This document shows positions 6,579-39,802 of a DNA stretch of 64,000 bases, in pieces. Both the position numbers and the translations under genes were made by a program. This stretch comes from Escherichia coli (GTDB taxonomy: Bacteria; Pseudomonadota; Gammaproteobacteria; Enterobacterales; Enterobacteriaceae), in assembly GCF_050920415.1 (NCBI RefSeq), contig NZ_CP169309.1; one strand, written 5' to 3'. The stretch's first letter is position 1, and every line of letters begins with the position of its first letter. Below the pieces are notes generated by a model. The model worked only from the letters and a program-made list of their open reading frames with translations. It ran no database searches and was not told the DNA's origin.

Positions 6579-7313
6579 TTAATTTTCGTGTGGAAACGTA
6601 GTAAGGTCATCAATCATTTTTTGAAGTATTGGTGAGTCCTGACCATCACCCCATTGAAGAATTTTTGCGGTAAGCTGATGACGGGCTAGTGCATTGAGTC
6701 CCATCTTTTTAAGTTTATGGGAGATTTTACCCATGACTTTAATCTGACCGAATGCAGTTGCGTAGGTAATCATATTGCTCTGGATAGTGCTCATTTCATC
6801 GGCTAGTAATTGCGCACGAATATCCTCTTCAAGAATACTTTCCATAGCGATATATTTCATACCCCAGATAGTTTCAATTAACATTTGAGGGAAATCAGCA
6901 CAATCTAGATCCGGCTCTTTACGCAGGCTATTTTCAAGAACGTTTAGAGCATCAGCACCTTCATCGCTGCCAAAAGGTGATTCTTCATCCCAGCAACACA
7001 CATAAAGTGGATCAGTAAAATGGCACTGGAAGTTTGGGTGTGACGTTTTAACATGTAACCCAATTTCTTCATCATCAAAATAGTAGCGATCCATGTAGTT
7101 AAAGTTTGGATCTTCTTGATAGCCTTTCTTCATTTTTGCGGCAATCAATTTACTGGCTTCTTTCAGACACTGTTCTTCATTATCGAACTCTTTTGTCTGG
7201 AATTTACCAATATTACCTACCTTGCCATAGTTGATAGCTAAACTATCCCCTTCGTAATCTATCCACCAAAATTTATTCGATTTTTCATCGTTATAAATAA
7301 AGCATTTTTTCAT
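6579..7313 (-). CDS. yfeS: WGR-domain protein YfeS
   Basis: 244-aa ORF with N-terminal WGR-like segment (FWWIDYEGDSLAINYGKVGNIGKFQTKEF); synteny. Confidence 0.8.
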   Translation of the reverse strand: MKKCFIYNDEKSNKFWWIDYEGDSLAINYGKVGNIGKFQTKEFDNEEQCLKEASKLIAAKMKKGYQEDPNFNYMDRYYFDDEEIGLHVKTSHPNFQCHFTDPLYVCCWDEESPFGSDEGADALNVLENSLRKEPDLDCADFPQMLIETIWGMKYIAMESILEEDIRAQLLADEMSTIQSNMITYATAFGQIKVMGKISHKLKKMGLNALARHQLTAKILQWGDGQDSPILQKMIDDLTTFPHEN

Positions 7314-7824: not shown

Positions 7825-8676
7825 ATGAGTAGTTTGTTGTTGTTTAACGATAAGAGCAGGGCATTGCAGGCGGATATCGTCGCCGTGCAGTCGCAGGTAG
7901 TGTACGGCAGCGTAGGCAACAGCATTGCCGTGCCTGCTATCAAACAGAACGGCCTGAATGTCTTTGCCGTGCCGACGGTATTGCTGAGCAATACGCCGCA
8001 TTATGACACTTTCTACGGTGGTGCGATTCCGGACGAATGGTTTAGCGGTTATTTGCGTGCGCTTCAGGAGCGTGATGCGCTGCGCCAGCTGCGCGCTGTC
8101 ACCACGGGCTATATGGGAACGGCATCGCAAATCAAAATCCTTGCCGAGTGGCTGACTGCGCTACGCAAAGACCATCCTGACTTATTGATTATGGTCGATC
8201 CGGTGATTGGCGATATTGATAGCGGAATTTATGTCAAACCTGACCTTCCTGAGGCATACCGACAATATTTACTGCCTCTGGCGCAGGGTATTACGCCCAA
8301 TATCTTTGAGCTGGAAATCCTGACAGGTAAAAATTGCCGCGATCTCGACAGCGCCATTGCTGCCGCAAAAAGTCTGCTTTCAGACACATTAAAGTGGGTG
8401 GTGATTACCAGTGCCTCCGGTAATGAAGAAAATCAGGAGATGCAGGTGGTGGTGGTCAGTGCCGACAGCGTGAATGTCATTTCCCATTCACGGGTTAAAA
8501 CTGACCTGAAAGGGACTGGCGACCTGTTTTGTGCTCAGCTTATCAGTGGCTTGTTGAAAGGTAAGGAATTAACTGACGCGGTACATAGCGCGGGATTACG
8601 CGTGCTGGAGGTGATGCGCTATACCCAGCAGTATGGTAGCGATGAATTGATTTTGCCGCCGCTGACTGAAGCATAA
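7825..8676 (+). CDS. pdxK: pyridoxal/pyridoxine/pyridoxamine kinase PdxK
   Basis: 283 aa, ribokinase-like PdxK family sequence; synteny next to crr. Confidence 0.9.
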
Positions 8677-8678
8677 AA

Positions 8679-8703
8679 AAATGGCGCCGATGGGCGCCAT
8701 TTT
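8679..8703. terminator. bidirectional intrinsic terminator between pdxK and crr
   Basis: aaaaaaatggcgccgatgggcgccattttt: GC-rich hairpin flanked by A-run and T-run. Confidence 0.55.
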
Positions 8704-23482: not shown

Positions 23483-23552
23483 ATGAGAGGCACGGGAACT
23501 GCCGGACATAGTTGGTCTGATAAGCGAAGCGCATCAGGCAATTTCGCAAATT

Positions 23553-23610
23553 GCAGATAGTAAAAAAGCGCCTTTAGGGCGCTTTTTTACATTGGTGGGT
23601 CGTGCAGGAT
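23553..23610. repeat. terminator palindrome plus 18-nt copy of the tRNA-Lys 3' end (att-like direct repeat, copy 1)
   Basis: gcagatagtaaaaaagcgcctttagggcgcttttttacat followed by tggtgggtcgtgcaggat, identical to the first 18 nt of the lysV complement at 39727. Confidence 0.6.
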
Positions 23611-23707
23611 GACTCGCTTCGCTCGCCCTTCGGGCCGTCGCCGCGAGCGGCTCCGTTGTTTCGCTGCGCTCAACTCGAACCTGCTGCAGGTTCGAATCTT
23701 TGAGTAT

Positions 23708-23765
23708 CGCAGATAGCAAAAAAGCGCCTTTAGGGCGCTTTTTTACATTGGTGGGTCGTGCAGAA
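23708..23765. repeat. second tandem copy of the terminator/att-like repeat (island-proximal boundary)
   Basis: gcagatagcaaaaaagcgcctttagggcgcttttttacat followed by tggtgggtcgtgcag (15 nt of the tRNA-Lys 3' end); near-identical to copy 1, about 155 bp away. Confidence 0.6.
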
Positions 23766-23826
23766 TCCTTATTCAGACTCTAACCTTTTGAAAAATCAAG
23801 AGATATAACACTAACAACCATCACTG

Positions 23827-33253: not shown

Positions 33254-34281
33254 AAAACGACACGCCCGATAGCGGAAAACGGAATGAGACACAGGCTCTG
33301 CGTGATGCCTGCTACGGCAATTTTTTTGCTGTCACCGATCTGCTGTACCGCAGTCGTGGCGATGCCATTTCACTGAGAACGGAACCGGAGCAGGAAACGG
33401 TTCATTTTCGTGCCAGTCCTGACATCGCGTTTCCCCTGCGGGATATTGAATCGCTGGAAAAAAATACCGCCGATCAGTACGTAATGACCACCCGATTTAT
33501 GGGGTTATCCGGCAGTTCATCACCATTGCCGGGTTACTATCTGGATGAGATGGCCTGGGTGCAGGCACAGGAAGGCGGCAGCACAACGGCGGATTTCCTG
33601 AACCTCTTCACCCACAGGTATACGCAATTTTTGTACCACATCTGGCGAAAATACCGCTGGTATATCAGTTTTCGTAATGGTGGAACGGATAAGATCTCAC
33701 AGCGGATCTATGCGCTTATCGGGCTGGGCAACCCGCGTGTACGGGAACGGCTGGATATCTGCCACAGCAGGCTGCTGGCTTACGCCGGAATATTATCCGG
33801 CCCCGGACGTTCACCGGCAATGATCTGCGATCTGATCGCACACTGTTTTGATCTGCATGATGTCAGACTGGAAAACTGGCAGTTTCGTCGGGTGGCTATT
33901 CCACCTGATCAGCAAACCCGGCTGGGAAGGTGTGAGCCGGATGCCGAAGGGAAGATGCAGGGTAAATCGGTGCTGGGCGTTAATTTTGTTCTCGGCTCGC
34001 GCGTACCGGATTACAGTGGGAAATTTATGTTGTGTATCAGTAACCTGTCACTGCCGCGATATATGGCCTTTTTGCCCGACGGTGAGGAATACCTGGCGCT
34101 GACCACCTTCGTGGCTTTCCTGTTGCGCGATCAGTTTGCCTGGGAGCTGCGGTTAAGTCTTGTGCCAGAGCAAATTGGTGGAATGCGGCTGGGGGATAAG
34201 AGAAGCTCTCAACTGGGGAGAACCAGTTTTATTGGTAAGCCGCCACGCGAACCCTTTGTGACCATACGGGTCAGGGGATAA
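33217..34281 (+). CDS. tssG: T6SS baseplate subunit TssG (ImpH/VasB family)
   Basis: 354 aa overlapping the tssF 3' end by 37 nt; conserved FMGLSGSSSPLPGYYLDEM block typical of TssG. Confidence 0.8.
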   Translation: MEGKNRSVPPDVENDTPDSGKRNETQALRDACYGNFFAVTDLLYRSRGDAISLRTEPEQETVHFRASPDIAFPLRDIESLEKNTADQYVMTTRFMGLSGSSSPLPGYYLDEMAWVQAQEGGSTTADFLNLFTHRYTQFLYHIWRKYRWYISFRNGGTDKISQRIYALIGLGNPRVRERLDICHSRLLAYAGILSGPGRSPAMICDLIAHCFDLHDVRLENWQFRRVAIPPDQQTRLGRCEPDAEGKMQGKSVLGVNFVLGSRVPDYSGKFMLCISNLSLPRYMAFLPDGEEYLALTTFVAFLLRDQFAWELRLSLVPEQIGGMRLGDKRSSQLGRTSFIGKPPREPFVTIRVRG

Positions 34282-34616
34282 AGCCTGTACTGGCAATTGT
34301 TCCGGCCTGCGCTTTGCGATCCGTCCTTCCAGAAAATCACTTGCCACCTTTTATGGGTCATTGTATCGTTGCGCCGCGTCTGCAAAATCAGGCGTCGGGA
34401 TTGGTCTCCCGGTTATAACTCGTTGACGGCATATGACATTTCTGTGTCATTTCTGTGCCGTGCGTTCGGCTGCACTTCTATGGTGGGGCCGGGTGGGGGC
34501 GTTGAAAGACGCGCCGGTTCCCAACGAGACCGGTAAGACCAACTCCGTCCGGTTCCACCACCCGTAAGATTGGTCTCTTCAGTGGTGGAAAATATATTCT
34601 CGTTGGAGGCCACATT

Positions 34617-35078
34617 ATGGCTGTTATTTCTGTTCATAAAGACGATTTACTTACCATCCCCTTCAGTGCCGCTACTGATTTCACCGATCTGGCTGCTCAC
34701 TGCGATCGCTTCGCCCAGACCCTGATCGAATGCCACAATCCTGCGCTAAAAATGGCGCTCTGTGGCAGGCTTAATACCTGCCTTGCACTGTTGCGGCCCA
34801 CGCTGAACGAGCCGATCCCGCCGCATCTGATTGACGGTTTTATTACGAATGATTTTCCCGATGTTTCACCCGGTTTTGAACCTGATGCAGAATCACTCTG
34901 CGATTACTGCCTGGCGCTGACACAGATACTGAATGGTCACTCACTGTTACCTGAAACCGAAACCACGCTGACCGGGCTGCTGTGCGAGCTGGTCTGGTAT
35001 TTTGCTGACAGTCTGAAAGCCCCGCACTGGATACGTACCGCTGACGGCGTACAGGTTATCGACGGGAGGCCAGCATGA
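34617..35078 (+). CDS. hypothetical protein, 153 aa, translationally coupled to the Ner-like gene
   Basis: Intact ORF; stop overlaps the next gene start (ATGA); no recognisable domain. Confidence 0.45.
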   Translation: MAVISVHKDDLLTIPFSAATDFTDLAAHCDRFAQTLIECHNPALKMALCGRLNTCLALLRPTLNEPIPPHLIDGFITNDFPDVSPGFEPDAESLCDYCLALTQILNGHSLLPETETTLTGLLCELVWYFADSLKAPHWIRTADGVQVIDGRPA

Positions 35079-35329
35079 TGCAGCCGGACTGGCATCCCGC
35101 TGATATTATCGCGGGACTGAGAAAACGGGGGACATCGCTGGCTAAGGTGTCCCGCAGCGCGGGACTGGCGTCCGCCACGCTGGCAAACGCGTTGACCCGT
35201 TCGTGGCCGCGCGGCGAAAAACTCATTGCGGATGCGCTGGAAACATCACCGGAAATTATCTGGCCCTCCAGATATTTCGATAATCAGGGCAACCGCATTG
35301 TAAGACTTATGCGAGAGCGGCGCTCCTGA
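35075..35329 (+). CDS. Ner/Nlp-family small DNA-binding protein
   Basis: 84 aa; DWHPADIIAGLRKRGTSLAKVSRSAGLASATLANAL resembles the Mu Ner / E. coli Nlp (SfsB) HTH family. Confidence 0.7.
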   Translation: MMQPDWHPADIIAGLRKRGTSLAKVSRSAGLASATLANALTRSWPRGEKLIADALETSPEIIWPSRYFDNQGNRIVRLMRERRS

Positions 35330-35365
35330 TGGCAGAAGCGTCAGATACAAGGTTACGGTAAAATA

Positions 35366-35409
35366 TCTCCCGGCTCTCTGCCTGCTTCTGCTGGCAGAGA
35401 GCCGGGAGA
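35366..35409 (+). terminator. strong stem-loop downstream of the Ner-like gene (17-bp perfect stem, no U-tract)
   Basis: tctcccggctctctgcc / ggcagagagccgggaga inverted repeat with about a 10-nt loop. Confidence 0.4.
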
Positions 35410-36219
35410 AGACAAGCGAAGCGCGGCAGTTTTTCAGTCACGAAGTAAGCAAACAATCTTTTAAACGCAAAAAACGTTTTTTCTTTCTGCGCCAGAAATA
35501 ACGGTGTAATCTCCCTCCTGCACTATGCCTTCGGGCACCCTTTGGCTTCATGGTCTGCAAGAAGCCCCTGATTTATCAGGACGACCAGCCCTTGCTACCG
35601 GTACGACCTCCGCAATACCGGAACGCGAAAGCGTTTGAGGCGAAGTAATTACACACCGGACAGCCCCATCGTCATCGTTTTACCGCAACGGCCTTCACTG
35701 GCTGCAAGGTTTCTCTTTGCCGGAATTTCTCCGGCCTGCTTATCCCCTGCTGATGACCAGCGCCTTTTACATGACGGGCTGCGGCCTGCATTGCCGTCAG
35801 GCTTTGCTGCCGCGTGACCGTTAATCTACCAGACTGTTAATTTTCGAATACTGCACCAGAAACGCAATGTTTACCCCTTGCACCAGACGAGGCGTCACTT
35901 TGATCGCGTCAGCGAAAAAGCAAAGTGACGCCGCACAACTCACCGCCGCAAGCCGCGCCAGTTCTGGCCTGCGCCCTGTTTCCGCCGTCTGACATGCCCT
36001 TTGGGGCCGTTGTCAGCTCAGAGTAAAGGAGAAAAAGATCGATACCGAGGGGGGCACGACGCCCCGGAGACACCCCTGCTTCGTCAGGCAGTCTGTACTG
36101 CGTACAGCCTGAAACTCCCTAAACCTCAACAAACTGCCACTCCGGCGTGAAGGTATCGTTCTGGCGCAGCCAAAAAGCACACGCCGGAGACTGTTTGTTT
36201 TTGTTGTCAGGGGAGAGTC

Positions 36220-37104
36220 ATGAGCAAATTAAGCAGTGAAATGAAGGCGCTGGCGAAGAAAGCGGGCGGCAGCTTCAAAACGGTGAATGATCGTATTCAT
36301 GCCACGAAGCGGTTCAGCCAGCATTTACGCGAACTGAATATCCAGATCCAGCGGGTGGAGCAGATCAAAGTTCGCCATATCGAATGCTACATTCAGGAGC
36401 GGCTGGAGCAGGATATTGGTTTACGCACGCTGCAAAACGAAATGGCGGCGCTGCGCTCCGTACTGAGACTGGCGGGACGCCGACAGGTGGTGGAGCATCC
36501 GCGCCTGACCAATAAGGCGCTGGGGCTGTCAGGCGCTTCGCGCAACGGCACGCGCCGCGCCATTACGCCGGAACATTATGAAAAAGTGATGGAGAGCGCC
36601 CGTGCACAGGATGCGGGGCTGGCGGCAGCGGTGGAGATTGCGCGGCTGATGGGATTACGCTCGCAGGAGGCGGTACAGAGTTCACAGTCGCTGAAAACGT
36701 GGCTGAAAGCCATTTCCCGCGGCGAAACCCGGCTGAAAGTGGTGTTTGGCACCAAAGGCGGGCGTCCACGTTACACAACGATCCTGGACGCTGGTGCAGT
36801 CAGAAAGGCGGTGGAAAACGCGTTACCGATCGCCAGACAGCGCAATGGCAGGCTGATCGACAGGCCTGACCTCAAAACAGCGCTGGAGAGCTGGCACAAA
36901 CAGGCCATTAAGGCGGGACTGAAGGGGGAATTTTCCCCGCACTCACTGCGTTATGCATGGGCACAGGACGCGATCCGTTATTATCTGGCGCAGGGATTCA
37001 GCGAAAAAGAATCCCTGGCGCTGACGGCAACGGATCTGGGCCACGGCGACGGTCGCGGCCGCTGGGTGAAACAGGTGTACGGCTACCGCTGGAAGGAGGA
37101 ATAA
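36220..37104 (+). CDS. tyrosine recombinase (phage integrase family)-like protein, 294 aa
   Basis: Catalytic-residue pattern consistent with tyrosine recombinases: GLRSQEA (box I Arg), HSLRYAWAQ (HxLR), C-terminal VYGYRW (Tyr). Confidence 0.6.
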   Translation: MSKLSSEMKALAKKAGGSFKTVNDRIHATKRFSQHLRELNIQIQRVEQIKVRHIECYIQERLEQDIGLRTLQNEMAALRSVLRLAGRRQVVEHPRLTNKALGLSGASRNGTRRAITPEHYEKVMESARAQDAGLAAAVEIARLMGLRSQEAVQSSQSLKTWLKAISRGETRLKVVFGTKGGRPRYTTILDAGAVRKAVENALPIARQRNGRLIDRPDLKTALESWHKQAIKAGLKGEFSPHSLRYAWAQDAIRYYLAQGFSEKESLALTATDLGHGDGRGRWVKQVYGYRWKEE

Positions 37105-37429
37105 CTGAATTCATGAATGGCGCAAAATAGTACGTTATTGTGTAATGACAGCAATCAGTCTGGCGCAGGGACCGGATGAAATAAAACAACCGGATACCTG
37201 CCGTTATCACTTAACAATATAGTGATAATATTGTTACTGTATGGCGAGTAAATATCAATAACCCAGACCTTCCTGCTTCATCAGTGTGTTTTTCTGGAAT
37301 ATTATAGTGATTACCCCTGTAATCACTCGAAACGTTCCCTATTGATAACAGGTGTTTTAATCGTTTTTACCGATACCACAGGACTGGGAAAATGTTAAAA
37401 TGCCAATTCACCAGAATTTCACATTAATT

Positions 37430-37920
37430 CTGGCGCAGGATTATATCTGAATAATTCTCTCCATGTTTTCCTGCATCCTGTGACATATATTGTATGCTCA
37501 CAGAATGTCTCATGATTTTATAAAAAATGCTGCGACAGTTTTTGACATCATTACCTGCTACATATAGATTAACAATCTTCGGTGCTTCATGTTGTTTTTT
37601 GCACTTTGTGATCATTATCAGGTGGTTAAAATACAATCTGGTGCAGACTGTCATGGCGCATTTCCAAATAAACTGGTTGCGCCAGAAAGGGAAAGGGTCA
37701 TAAAGGTTAAGGGGCAATAAGGGTAACAGCGCCTGACCGGAAAGGGCGGAAAACTAAAGGGCCAGAAACTGGCGCAGTCCTGAGTATTTTAAATCGCAGG
37801 ATGCTGGTGTAGATATCGGCTAATCCGAAATGGTGCAGGATTTTATCTCTGCGTATCTGGTGCGGTTCTTAAAGGTTGCAGGATATATTTTCATGATCAG
37901 GTTGTGGTGCAGATATTTTT
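37430..37920. repeat. array of iteron-like direct repeats (consensus about TGGTGCAGGATnTTATCT)
   Basis: ctggcgcaggattatatctg, tggtgcagactg, cgcaggatgctggtgtagatatcg, ggtgcaggattttatctctg, ggttgcaggatatatttt, ggtgcagatatttttg within about 500 bp of AT-rich ORF-poor DNA. Confidence 0.4.
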
Positions 37921-37972
37921 GCGTATTAATTGTTTTTTCCGTGAAATTATCGCTTATTGATAGATTTCCACC

Positions 37973-37998
37973 TGTTTTGATTTGCATGCAAATCAAAA
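37973..37998. promoter_or_regulatory. perfect 26-bp palindrome (candidate protein-binding site)
   Basis: gttttgatttgcatgcaaatcaaaac is its own reverse complement; a second dyad (aaattattcac-tg-gtgaataattt) lies at about 38045..38068. Confidence 0.4.
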
Positions 37999-38249
37999 CG
38001 GTCAGTTTCCTATTAATAAGGCGTTAATTAATAGGTTTTTACCCAAAATTATTCACTGGTGAATAATTTCGTACTATTTCCAATTAATAATAACAAACAC
38101 AATGGCAATACCTCTCAATACAAAAAAGCAGATCCCCGTCAATCAGGATCTGCTTTTCCATTTTTACAGAATTACATTATTTCTGACTCAGGCAGGCCTG
38201 TGTCACCAGGTATGGCTGATAACGGCTATTTCTGTTGCCATATGGAGCA

Positions 38250-39461
38250 CTATATTGCCCTTACAGTCACAGATGCCTCACTGATCTTCTGCCCCCACCA
38301 ATTCATCAGTTCCACACGCTGAACCAGGTAAACTGCGCGGTTGTAGGCAACACGTGTTGGATTTTCATCAATATGTGACAAAACTGCTTCCACCGCATCC
38401 GGCATAAATCCGGCTTCATGCAGCGCCGTACTGCCCAGCGCGCGGAAACCATGTGAAACCAACTCGCCGCCGTAACCCATCCGCCATAATGCCTTGTTGA
38501 CCGTCTCACTGTGCATTGGCTGGCTGCGTTTAACCCTGCCGGGAAAGACATACAGCGAATGCTCACTTAATGGCTTAAGCTGCGCCAATACCGACATTGC
38601 CTGTGGTGACAGTGGCACCTGGTGCTCACGCTTCATCTTCATGCGTTCAGCCGGGATAGTCCAGAGCCGTTTATCCATATCAATCTCACACCACATCGTT
38701 CCTGCGGCCTCAGCAGGGCGTACCAGGGTCAGGAGTTGCCATTGCAGCAATAACCGCGTCATGGGGCTTAAACAGGTTGTGTGGACCCGCTGCATGAGTT
38801 CCGGCAGACGCTCCGGGCGAATGGTCGGCATATGCTGCTTTTTCGGCTTCACGAATGCTTCATCAATGGTTGACGCCGGGTTTGCATCCAGCAGGCCTGT
38901 ATTAATGGCGAATTTCATGACCTCATTAATTCGCTGCGTCAGCCGGTGCAACGTCTCCAGCGTGCCACGCGCCCGTACAGGCTCCAGGGCGGAAATAAGC
39001 GTGTGCGCTTTCAGTTCTGTCACTGGCATCTGCCCAATGGCCGGGAACACATCGCGCTCCAGCGATCTCCAGATATCGTCTGCATAATCTTCGGAGATTC
39101 TGGTTTTCTTCACCGCGAACCATCTCGTCGCCACATTAATAAACAGGCTCTCCACCGCCAGCCGCTCCCGTTCGGCTTCCTCCTGCTCCAGTTTCTTTGG
39201 GTCAATACCTTTCACAAGCAGGGAAAGCTGTTCGGCGTGTAATGCGCGTGCGCTGGCAAGCGACATGGCAGGATAATGCCCGAGAGTGATGGTGGTTCGC
39301 GCAGTCGAATTTGGCCGTTTGTAACGAAAACGCCAGATCTTTTTACCGCTGGTTCTGACAAACAGGGTCAGCCCCTGCCCGTCAAACAGTTCGTAATCTT
39401 TATCAGAGGGTTTTGCTTTCTGGACTTCGCAAGCTGATAACGGACGGGTAAGAACAGCCAT
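38250..39461 (-). CDS. int: P4-type (tRNA-associated) tyrosine integrase
   Basis: 403 aa; N-terminal LSACEVQKAKPSDKDYELFDGQGLTLFV... block typical of P4-like integrases; gene ends 265 bp from the 3' end of tRNA-Lys. Confidence 0.9.
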   Translation of the reverse strand: MAVLTRPLSACEVQKAKPSDKDYELFDGQGLTLFVRTSGKKIWRFRYKRPNSTARTTITLGHYPAMSLASARALHAEQLSLLVKGIDPKKLEQEEAERERLAVESLFINVATRWFAVKKTRISEDYADDIWRSLERDVFPAIGQMPVTELKAHTLISALEPVRARGTLETLHRLTQRINEVMKFAINTGLLDANPASTIDEAFVKPKKQHMPTIRPERLPELMQRVHTTCLSPMTRLLLQWQLLTLVRPAEAAGTMWCEIDMDKRLWTIPAERMKMKREHQVPLSPQAMSVLAQLKPLSEHSLYVFPGRVKRSQPMHSETVNKALWRMGYGGELVSHGFRALGSTALHEAGFMPDAVEAVLSHIDENPTRVAYNRAVYLVQRVELMNWWGQKISEASVTVRAI

Positions 39462-39726: not shown

Positions 39727-39802
39727 TGGTGGGTCGTGCAGGATTCGAACCTGCGACCAATTGATTAAAAGTCAACTGCTCTACCAACTGAGCTAACGAC
39801 CC
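39727..39802 (-). tRNA. lysV: tRNA-Lys (anticodon UUU)
   Basis: Reverse complement reads GGGTCGTTAGCTCAGTTGGTAGAGCAGTTGACTTTTAATCAATTGGTCGCAGGTTCGAATCCTGCACGACCCACCA. Confidence 0.95.

Follow-up and report, generated by a model that had tools for sequence, protein, structure and literature searches.

The stretch of Escherichia coli DNA analysed here (64,000 nucleotides (nt); assembly GCF_050920415.1, contig NZ_CP169309.1; hereafter the window) contains, at positions 34617-35329, two overlapping genes that encode a 153-amino-acid (aa) protein and an 84-aa Ner-like protein. Our analysis indicates that the two genes are probably the protein output of an antisense-RNA immunity switch of the phage P4 type, which forms a conserved regulatory backbone of tRNA-integrated islands carrying P4-type integrases. 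A structured leader of about 240 nt, overlooked by an earlier sequence-only reading of the window, lies directly 5' of the 153-aa gene, and its antisense segments covary with their targets among related loci.

The leader lies entirely on the + strand. A sigma-70-type promoter-like site at 34341-34369 (TTGCCA and TATCGT separated by a 17-nt spacer) was the only one found in the region 34200-36300, and a transcript start near 34376 is predicted from it. An RNA of the IsrK/P4 seqA type follows at 34376-34454 (Rfam isrK, RF01394; 53.2 bits against a gathering threshold of 50) and ends in a weak terminator-like hairpin. It is overlapped by a c4-a1b1 motif (RF03163) at 34363-34415, which scored 43.1 bits, just under the gathering threshold of 46.7. 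This part of the leader carries the target sites a1 (34401-34407, TTGGTCT) and b1 (34419-34425, CTCGTTG), both of which are complementary, here as in most related loci, to segments of C4. The antisense RNA itself, of the C4/P4 CI type, spans 34476-34565 and matches the full Rfam model (C4, RF01695; 68.1 bits, gathering threshold 45, E 1e-12), with a predicted folding free energy (dG) of -46.3 kcal/mol. Its b' segment (34521-34529, CCAACGAGA) occupies the loop of hairpin 2, and its a' segment (34536-34542, AGACCAA) is single-stranded just 3' of that hairpin. The region that follows (34570-34609) is the equivalent of P4 seqC and contains a2 (34570-34576, TTGGTCT), an exact 7-nt complement of a'; b2 (34598-34606, TCTCGTTGG), an exact 9-nt complement of b'; and the Shine-Dalgarno (SD) sequence of the 153-aa gene (34605-34609, GGAGG), which b2 overlaps and which precedes the ATG at 34617. 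The predicted duplex between b' and the ribosome-binding site had an energy of -20.7 kcal/mol, compared with -7.4 ± 2.6 kcal/mol for shuffled targets.

For the comparative analysis we used 56 loci encoding relatives of the 153-aa protein, one genome per species, together with more loci from a protein collection; the genera sampled were Escherichia, Salmonella, Klebsiella, Enterobacter, Citrobacter, Serratia, Dickeya, Pectobacterium, Erwinia, Morganella and others. A C4 RNA was recognised in 52 of the 56 loci, and the order of the leader elements, with IsrK and C4 head to tail, was the same in 11 of the 12 related loci scanned with Rfam. The hexamers of the promoter-like site (CTTGCC and GTATC) were conserved at a constant distance from the IsrK-like RNA, and b2 always ended 9-11 nt 5' of the ATG. 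At least 12 variants of b' and about eight variants of a' occurred, and the targets changed in step within each locus: perfect complements averaged 7.9 nt (b) and 6.8 nt (a) within the same locus, compared with 4.4 nt (b) and 3.8 nt (a) between loci with different loops. A formal covariation count was performed on an alignment of 51 loci, with 500 shuffles and sliding of the partner columns as controls. In the alignment 94.6% of the cells were paired, compared with 77% after shuffling and at most 48% after sliding, and compensatory changes were found in 12 of the 16 intermolecular pairs. Cells changed on both sides numbered 135, compared with 30 ± 4.5 in the shuffled alignments, and the covariation score was 0.538, compared with 0.203 for shuffled and at most 0.119 for slid columns; for both quantities, none of the 500 shuffles was as high. 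Such co-variation of a'/b' and targets is the signature of the heteroimmune C4 systems of P1/P7, here on a much larger scale.

Two further features of the leader region were noted. The 3' strand of the stem that closes C4 (CCACCACC; alignment A3, columns ~93-103; window ~34553-34563) has a second complement in a conserved GGTGGTGG (columns ~122-130; window ~34583-34590), located a few nt beyond a2. The two segments seem to covary, CCGCCACC occurring with GGTGGCGG or CTGGCGG; this pattern suggests an alternative fold of the unprocessed transcript. In addition, a motif TTTGCGA(T/G)C-N6-9-TTCCAG is present about 20-40 nt 5' of the -35 hexamer (window ~34300-34335) in many loci, with or without a Ner gene, and is a candidate operator or boundary of the element, since the conserved backbone meets variable cargo at roughly this place.

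Both of the overlapping genes are real. The chromosome of E. coli MFDS1022581 matches the window with 100% identity, and its RefSeq annotation has the same two coding sequences (CDS) at this place, namely the 153-aa open reading frame (ORF; 34617-35078) and the 84-aa Ner-like ORF (35075-35329), each on the + strand with an ATG start. Most of the module also occurs in about 160 complete E. coli genomes. They share the ATGA at 35075-35078, which contains the stop of the first and the start of the second. This 4-nt overlap was invariant in every related locus with both genes (25 distinct pairs, other genera included), which bears out the earlier proposal of a translationally coupled unit. Substitutions among the related loci showed a third-position bias in both ORFs (codon positions 1/2/3: 8343/6546/15949 for the 153-aa ORF and 1424/1110/3655 for the Ner ORF). 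The SD of the Ner gene (GGAGG, 35065-35069) lies inside the last codons of the 153-aa gene, and a GAGG or GGAG was kept at this place in 17 of 20 distinct junctions. It is this bias, together with the constant junction, the conserved SD of the Ner gene and the occurrence of the 153-aa family throughout the Enterobacterales, that establishes the two genes as real.

A close counterpart of this arrangement was found in phage P4. An Rfam scan of P4 placed isrK at 8615-8692 and C4 at 8420-8507 on the minus strand, followed by the start of kil. The P4 b' loop (ATCCTGTGAAG) pairs with TTCACAGG, which abuts the kil SD, and P4 a' pairs with GTGAGAA, which is present both after CI and in seqA. P4 and the window share the order isrK/seqA then C4/CI, and in both a b2-type target adjoins the SD of the gene that is translated first. 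The start region of kil (CACAGGAGGCTGCCATCATGGCTACAACC) and the beginning of Kil itself (MATTLTPSHP) agree with the 153-aa family consensus (ACTGGAGGCTGCCACTATGGCTAC; MATTLTQTHPLL), and the first 10-20 or so codons appear homologous. As in the window, the next P4 gene overlaps the first, and a P4-type integrase adjoins the tRNA attachment (att) site. According to the summary in PMC10111431, kil comes first among the translated genes of the operon under immunity control, and Kil kills when overexpressed. However, P4 Kil has 65 aa and is unrelated to the 153-aa protein past the N-terminus, and the second P4 gene encodes the anti-repressor Epsilon, whereas a Mu Ner homologue occupies this position in the window. 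The P4 genes for alpha primase, sid/delta/psu and Vis are absent here, as is an orf151 homologue, and the element is a cargo island rather than a satellite-phage genome. P4 ORF151, which is similar in length to the 153-aa protein, was considered as a homologue and rejected as unrelated.

In the immI region of P1/P7 (c4-icd-ant1/2), C4 is cut from the transcript that it controls, a step that we would expect in the window as well, and a/b targets are duplicated up- and downstream. P1 C4 blocks translation of icd and thereby expression of ant (PMC8198154); b2 falls on the ribosome-binding site of a small leading gene, which has to be translated if the second gene, overlapping it, is to be expressed. 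Variants that differ in specificity give rise to heteroimmunity (PMC8198154, PMC12197685). Yet icd and ant are unrelated to the output genes of the window, P1/P7 is a plasmid prophage and not a chromosomal island, and the C1-type protein repressor and operator of P1/P7 have no evident counterpart here, where specificity types are many more. A third parallel is the isrK-orf45 (STnc1160)-anrP region of the Salmonella prophage Gifsy-1, in which IsrK is followed by a processed RNA of about 80 nt and, when supplied in trans, activates a downstream gene coupled by AUGA (orf45-anrP); the authors of that study relate IsrK to P4 seqA and STnc1160 to CI (PMC4825925). The AUGA coupling behind the IsrK RNA resembles the ATGA junction of the window, but the gated gene of Gifsy-1, a lambdoid prophage, encodes an anti-repressor by which an antiterminator is switched on, whereas the genes here are those of the 153-aa and Ner proteins in a non-phage island. 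In ordinary temperate phages with a similar C4, too, the next gene encodes an anti-repressor. The regulatory logic is already known from P4, P1 and IsrK; what is new is the output (an unannotated family plus Ner), the home (non-phage cargo islands and orphan cassettes) and the breadth of specificity types.

The leader and the gene pair are linked to integrase genes. Downstream integrase genes were found in 20 of the 23 Ner-containing loci with enough flank, compared with one of 24 Ner-less loci. In most Ner-containing loci a small integrase gene lies 1.0-2.1 kb 3' of the pair, and it was present in no Ner-less locus; a tyrosine integrase gene oriented like the P4-type integrase gene of the window lies 2.3-4.9 kb 3' of the pair in Ner-containing loci. 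In the window, the small gene (36220-37104, + strand) encodes a 294-aa tyrosine-recombinase-like protein with Phage_int_SAM_2 and Integrase_1 domains (Pfam E 3e-59 and 2.5e-40) and with the HSLR, LGH and C-terminal Tyr motifs. The 403-aa P4-type integrase gene (38250-39461, minus strand; a RefSeq CDS) adjoins the attachment site at tRNA-Lys (lysV, 39727-39802, minus strand; found by ARAGORN and Rfam). The last 18 nt at the 3' end of lysV (39727-39744) form one end of the island, and direct repeats of them at 23593-23610 (18/18 identical) and 23749-23766 (17/18) mark the other, so that the island between the lysV-end repeats measures about 16 kb and has the gene pair towards its integrase end. 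No directionality factor of the AlpA/Vis type is annotated in it. The cargo of the window is related to the type VI secretion system (T6SS), with tssF and tssG on one strand and a vgrG-DUF4123-four hypothetical genes-PAAR operon on the other. Sister islands have the same backbone and other cargo: Rhs in E. coli APEC O78 at tRNA-Asn, AbiE and TacAT in Klebsiella, and type I restriction-modification and DarTG in Pectobacterium.

The 153-aa protein had been described from the sequence as having no recognisable family, and our searches agree: it had no match in Pfam, NCBIfam, PHROGs, PADLOC or, in a profile search, the sequences of the PDB, and a Foldseek search of viral structures gave nothing at E ≤ 0.001. 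A tblastn search of phages returned as its sole match a 1.5-kb unannotated fragment record, and none to P4 or P1; the matches to plasmids were mostly mislabelled chromosomes. The family comprises about 230 representatives at 50% identity, all from Enterobacterales. The protein is acidic (isoelectric point (pI) 4.6, net charge -12; family median pI 4.6), and its predicted fold is a four-helix bundle with a C-terminal beta-hairpin. This charge pattern, set against the basic Ner protein, would fit a protein-binding or DNA-mimicking modulator.

Two forms of the family were distinguished, a Ner-linked form of about 153 aa and a shorter form of 142-146 aa without the C-terminal hairpin. A Ner gene was missing beside 29 of 57 family copies, which were mostly of the shorter form; in 23 of 24 Ner-less loci, this form had the RNA leader, no Ner gene and no integrase within 6 kb. 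Such orphan cassettes, consisting of the leader and the 142-146-aa form, lie in ordinary chromosomal surroundings, with up to five per genome (in our numbering, loci L009, L011, L014, L017 and L024 in Enterobacteriaceae bacterium 89; L016, L020, L028 and L038 in RIT691; and L047, L048 and L053-L055), and orphan copies that share a genome carry different a'/b' recognition sequences.

An exhaustive search for family members also returned apparent domain-fusion proteins, which we rejected as fusions; they are read-through ORFs across the RNA leader that carry Phage_ASH. Proteins P0011, P0018, P0082, P0088, P0090 and P0224 are annotated as 'ash family proteins' of 199-215 aa. Their extra N-terminus (MVG.AGA.QGAPVS...) is an in-frame translation of the C4 RNA gene and matches positions 49-105 of Phage_ASH (PF10554), and their layout mirrors that of P4 eta, a frame that includes kil and overlaps both seqA and CI. 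Read-through of the C4 RNA gene explains the longer annotations. In the window this frame is interrupted across the RNA genes by stop codons within 34331-34616, of which the one at 34503 is nearest. Unlike in P4, an eta-like extension is hence impossible and only the 153-aa form can be made.

The second gene had been read as encoding a small helix-turn-helix (HTH) protein of the Ner/Nlp type, and profile searches confirmed this. The 84-aa protein is a full-length member of Pfam HTH_35 (PF13693; 112 bits against a cut-off of 25), a family that includes Mu Ner, E. coli SfsB/Nlp and Edwardsiella EnrR; its residues 4-68 match phage Mu Ner (PDB 1NEQ, E 7e-25), and it also matches EnrR (PDB 7F9H, E 6e-21). 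It scored 114.4 bits with the NCBIfam SfsB model (NF007670), under the equivalog cut-off of 150, and judged by this score it is not the chromosomal SfsB equivalog. The protein is basic (pI 11.1) and of the winged-HTH DNA-binding type. In Mu and in the EnrR clade, the Ner-type gene is the first gene at a divergent switch, whereas here it is the second, overlapping gene. An operator consensus is known for Mu Ner, but none lies near the 84-aa gene; searches of the locus with this consensus and for repeats identified no Ner binding sites, and no convincing operator repeats were found near the leader promoter. The literature searched contained no link between a Ner-like gene and a P4-like integrase. 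EnrR, an island-encoded HTH_35 protein that counteracts H-NS at promoters of the type III secretion system (T3SS) and the T6SS (PMC9023278), was the only experimentally characterised island-borne member of the family that we found. It was considered as a member of the same module and rejected: EnrR has an N-terminal extension that is missing from the 84-aa protein (residue 17 of EnrR aligns with residue 4 of the query), and in EnrR-clade loci, which have another gene order and lack the 153-aa gene, the gene is the first one, divergent from a DUF2787/RadC operon.

From these observations we infer how the switch may work. The promoter at 34341-34369 would drive a constitutive leader transcript, part of which would end as a short IsrK/seqA-like RNA bearing the target copies a1 and b1, while transcripts that read through would be processed into a stable C4/CI RNA of about 90 nt. 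The two exposed segments of this RNA would pair with a2 (34570-34576) and b2 (34598-34606) and, because b2 overlaps the SD, would block translation of the 153-aa gene in vivo. By analogy with P1 icd-ant and P4 kil, the untranslated RNA would be open to Rho; given this access, and because the start codon of Ner overlaps the stop of the first gene, Ner output should fall with that of the 153-aa protein. When C4 is outcompeted, either by an excess of the IsrK-like decoy RNA or by stronger transcription, both proteins would be made. The Ner homologue would then bind DNA as a regulator of the Cro/Ner type, most likely at island promoters, whether its own or that of the adjacent integrase module. 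The acidic four-helix protein, which occupies the position of P4 Kil, may act as a protein-binding effector similar to Kil or to an anti-repressor.

Several observations weigh against this explanation. A C4 RNA was not recognisable in four of the 56 family loci, and the promoter at 34341-34369 is a consensus match only. The Ner gene has its own well-placed SD, and its translation need not strictly depend on the 153-aa gene. The Mu-type Ner operator consensus is absent from the locus, and matches to it across the window were below chance. The alignment of the 153-aa protein with P4 Kil/eta covers the first 20 or so residues only (hhalign probability 60%, 26 columns); since the protein is more than twice as long as Kil and the likeness is confined to this part, to equate the two in function would be a guess. 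The 153-aa protein fused through a linker to Ner and modelled with AlphaFold (25 paired sequences; no predicted aligned error was available) had a predicted template modelling score of 0.48, compared with 0.69 for the 153-aa protein alone, and showed no gain in confidence at the C-terminal hairpin; it gives no support for a complex, although the method is weak either way. Finally, some copies are decaying. In the copy of E. coli APEC O78 (L002; NC_020163.1, ~2,797,000-2,802,500), a' (ATGCCAA) no longer matches a2 (TTAGCCT) and still matches a1, the Ner gene is frameshifted, and the tRNA-proximal integrase gene has an internal stop.

Decay of this kind, together with the absence of the P4 genes for replication and helper exploitation, would also be expected if the locus were what is left of a decayed P4-like satellite and now had no function. 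We regard this as highly improbable, since both ORFs are intact with third-position bias across many genera, the antisense-target complementarity has been kept through many compensatory changes, and the SD and the ATGA junction are conserved. Equally improbable is the cassette suggested in the sequence-only reading, with a toxin gene first and an HTH antitoxin gene second, in which the 153-aa protein would be a type II toxin and the Ner-like protein its antitoxin and autorepressor. Two small island genes that overlap by ATGA and include one for an HTH protein do fit such a system, but half of the family, intact multi-copy orphan cassettes included, lacks the Ner gene, which an obligatory antitoxin would forbid, and mainly for this reason we rejected it. 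Moreover, the 153-aa protein has no recognisable toxin fold and no toxin-family, PADLOC or PHROGs match, its fold being a generic acidic helical bundle; regulation probably proceeds via a long RNA leader, and no operator-type promoter lies directly upstream of the first gene; the Ner protein is a close homologue of Mu Ner without an extra neutralising domain; and the AlphaFold2 fusion does not support a complex.

Three other proposals concern what the proteins do. The 153-aa protein may be a growth inhibitor of the Kil type, with C4 RNA as the antidote, as in P4 kil and P1 icd, so that the cassette stabilises the island or excludes related elements and Ner is accessory; this idea, which concerns the role of the protein and is compatible with the antisense control favoured here, is unlikely on the present evidence. 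The gene lies exactly at the position of P4 kil and has a homologous initiation region, and Kil is lethal when overexpressed (PMC10111431). IsrK-like elements of P4-like prophages are required in transposon libraries of Salmonella Typhi (PMC3632133). Orphan cassettes of leader and gene persist without Ner or integrase, and those of one genome (Enterobacteriaceae bacterium 89) differ in a'/b' specificity, as if cross-talk were selected against. However, the similarity to Kil ends after about 20 residues, and an acidic soluble bundle of 150 aa is unlike the known small RNA-controlled toxins. Slightly more probable, and still doubtful, is a switch for excision or transfer, in which Ner, either alone or together with the 153-aa protein, would regulate or direct the recombinases encoded next to it and relief from C4 would lead to excision of the island. 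The tight linkage of Ner to the small and P4-type integrase genes, the position between Ner and the integrase of the EFASI and STAXI RNA motifs, known only as associated with integrases and integrative and conjugative elements, and the lack of an annotated AlpA/Vis-type factor in the 16-kb island are in its favour. On the other hand, the searches revealed no binding sites, a strong hairpin stands between Ner and the integrase genes, the Pectobacterium locus lacks the small integrase, and the linkage could be mere common descent of the backbone. We consider it improbable that Ner acts as an anti-silencer in the manner of EnrR, displacing H-NS and turning on AT-rich cargo. EnrR is itself island-encoded, its match to the 84-aa protein is strong and it acts at T6SS promoters, and the cargo of the window is T6SS-related; but the EnrR-clade genes lie in another context without the 153-aa gene, and the cargo of sister islands (restriction-modification, Abi and Rhs) is unrelated.

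The region between the pair and the integrase genes contains further elements. A hairpin with 20-bp arms (35366-35409, + strand; arms 95% complementary, dG -42 kcal/mol) begins 37 nt after the Ner stop and is the probable 3' end of the bicistronic unit, as a terminator, processing site or stabiliser; it has no T-run on the + strand in the window and hence was not called as an intrinsic terminator. A long, near-perfect hairpin (17-20-bp stem) was observed after the Ner stop in nearly all Ner-containing loci (L003, L006, L008, L012, L023, L030, L033, L034, L039, L041-L044 and others); the stem sequences vary, while the base (CTCCCG...CGGGAG) and the 3' flank (AAGRCAAGCGAAGCGCGGCA) are conserved. 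Because many copies lack a T-run, the hairpin may serve in processing or stabilisation, or form a structure in single-stranded DNA, rather than act as a plain terminator. Directly 5' of the small integrase gene lies an EFASI RNA motif (36034-36162, + strand; Rfam RF02957, 99.2 bits, gathering threshold 51.2), which was found in the same place in seven of the 12 related loci scanned. In L008, a STAXI motif (6895-7041) lies between Ner and EFASI. The two integrase genes of the window are separated by an AT-rich gap of 1.1 kb (37105-38249; GC content 35-45%, compared with 52-60% around it) that contains no annotated gene and short ORFs only.

The island end away from lysV carries a 61-nt unit in two copies (23550-23610 and 23706-23766), spaced 156 nt start to start. 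Each contains a terminator-like hairpin and has a copy of the tRNA-Lys 3' end at its own end, and the region is labelled 'RtT sRNA' (small RNA) in RefSeq; the two att copies suggest successive integrations or the leftover of a second element. The T6SS cargo (31406-34281 and the minus-strand genes leftward of it; L001 9629-16668) is incomplete, with no other T6SS core genes in the island. In Escherichia whittamii (NZ_JACSQI010000002.1; L044 and L008), one contig holds two complete modules that converge on each other and are separated by about 10 kb, each with a small and a P4-type integrase gene, which suggests adjacent islands, each with its own integrase module.

Islands composed of an integrase gene and cargo, among them defence islands and orphan T6SS/Rhs islands, are very common in Enterobacterales. 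Our results point to one such island family that keeps the antisense-RNA immunity logic of P4 and P1 and has it wired to a different output, an acidic protein and a Mu Ner homologue. A conserved unannotated protein family is thereby placed in a context and given an initial hypothesis, the conserved backbone provides a fixed genetic setting for the EFASI and STAXI motifs, and the a'/b' loops and their targets offer a concrete, mutable handle on island regulation. A wider reading, which we put forward tentatively, is that the cassette works as an RNA switch of general use whose specificity is programmed by sequence (b' occurring in at least 12 types and a' in about eight) and that times excision, transfer or cargo expression in a large family of non-phage Enterobacterales islands carrying defence, Rhs and T6SS genes; the 153-aa protein would then be a new Kil- or anti-repressor-like effector, with Ner as its DNA-binding arm. 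If this were true, differences in specificity would prevent interference between islands that share a cell.

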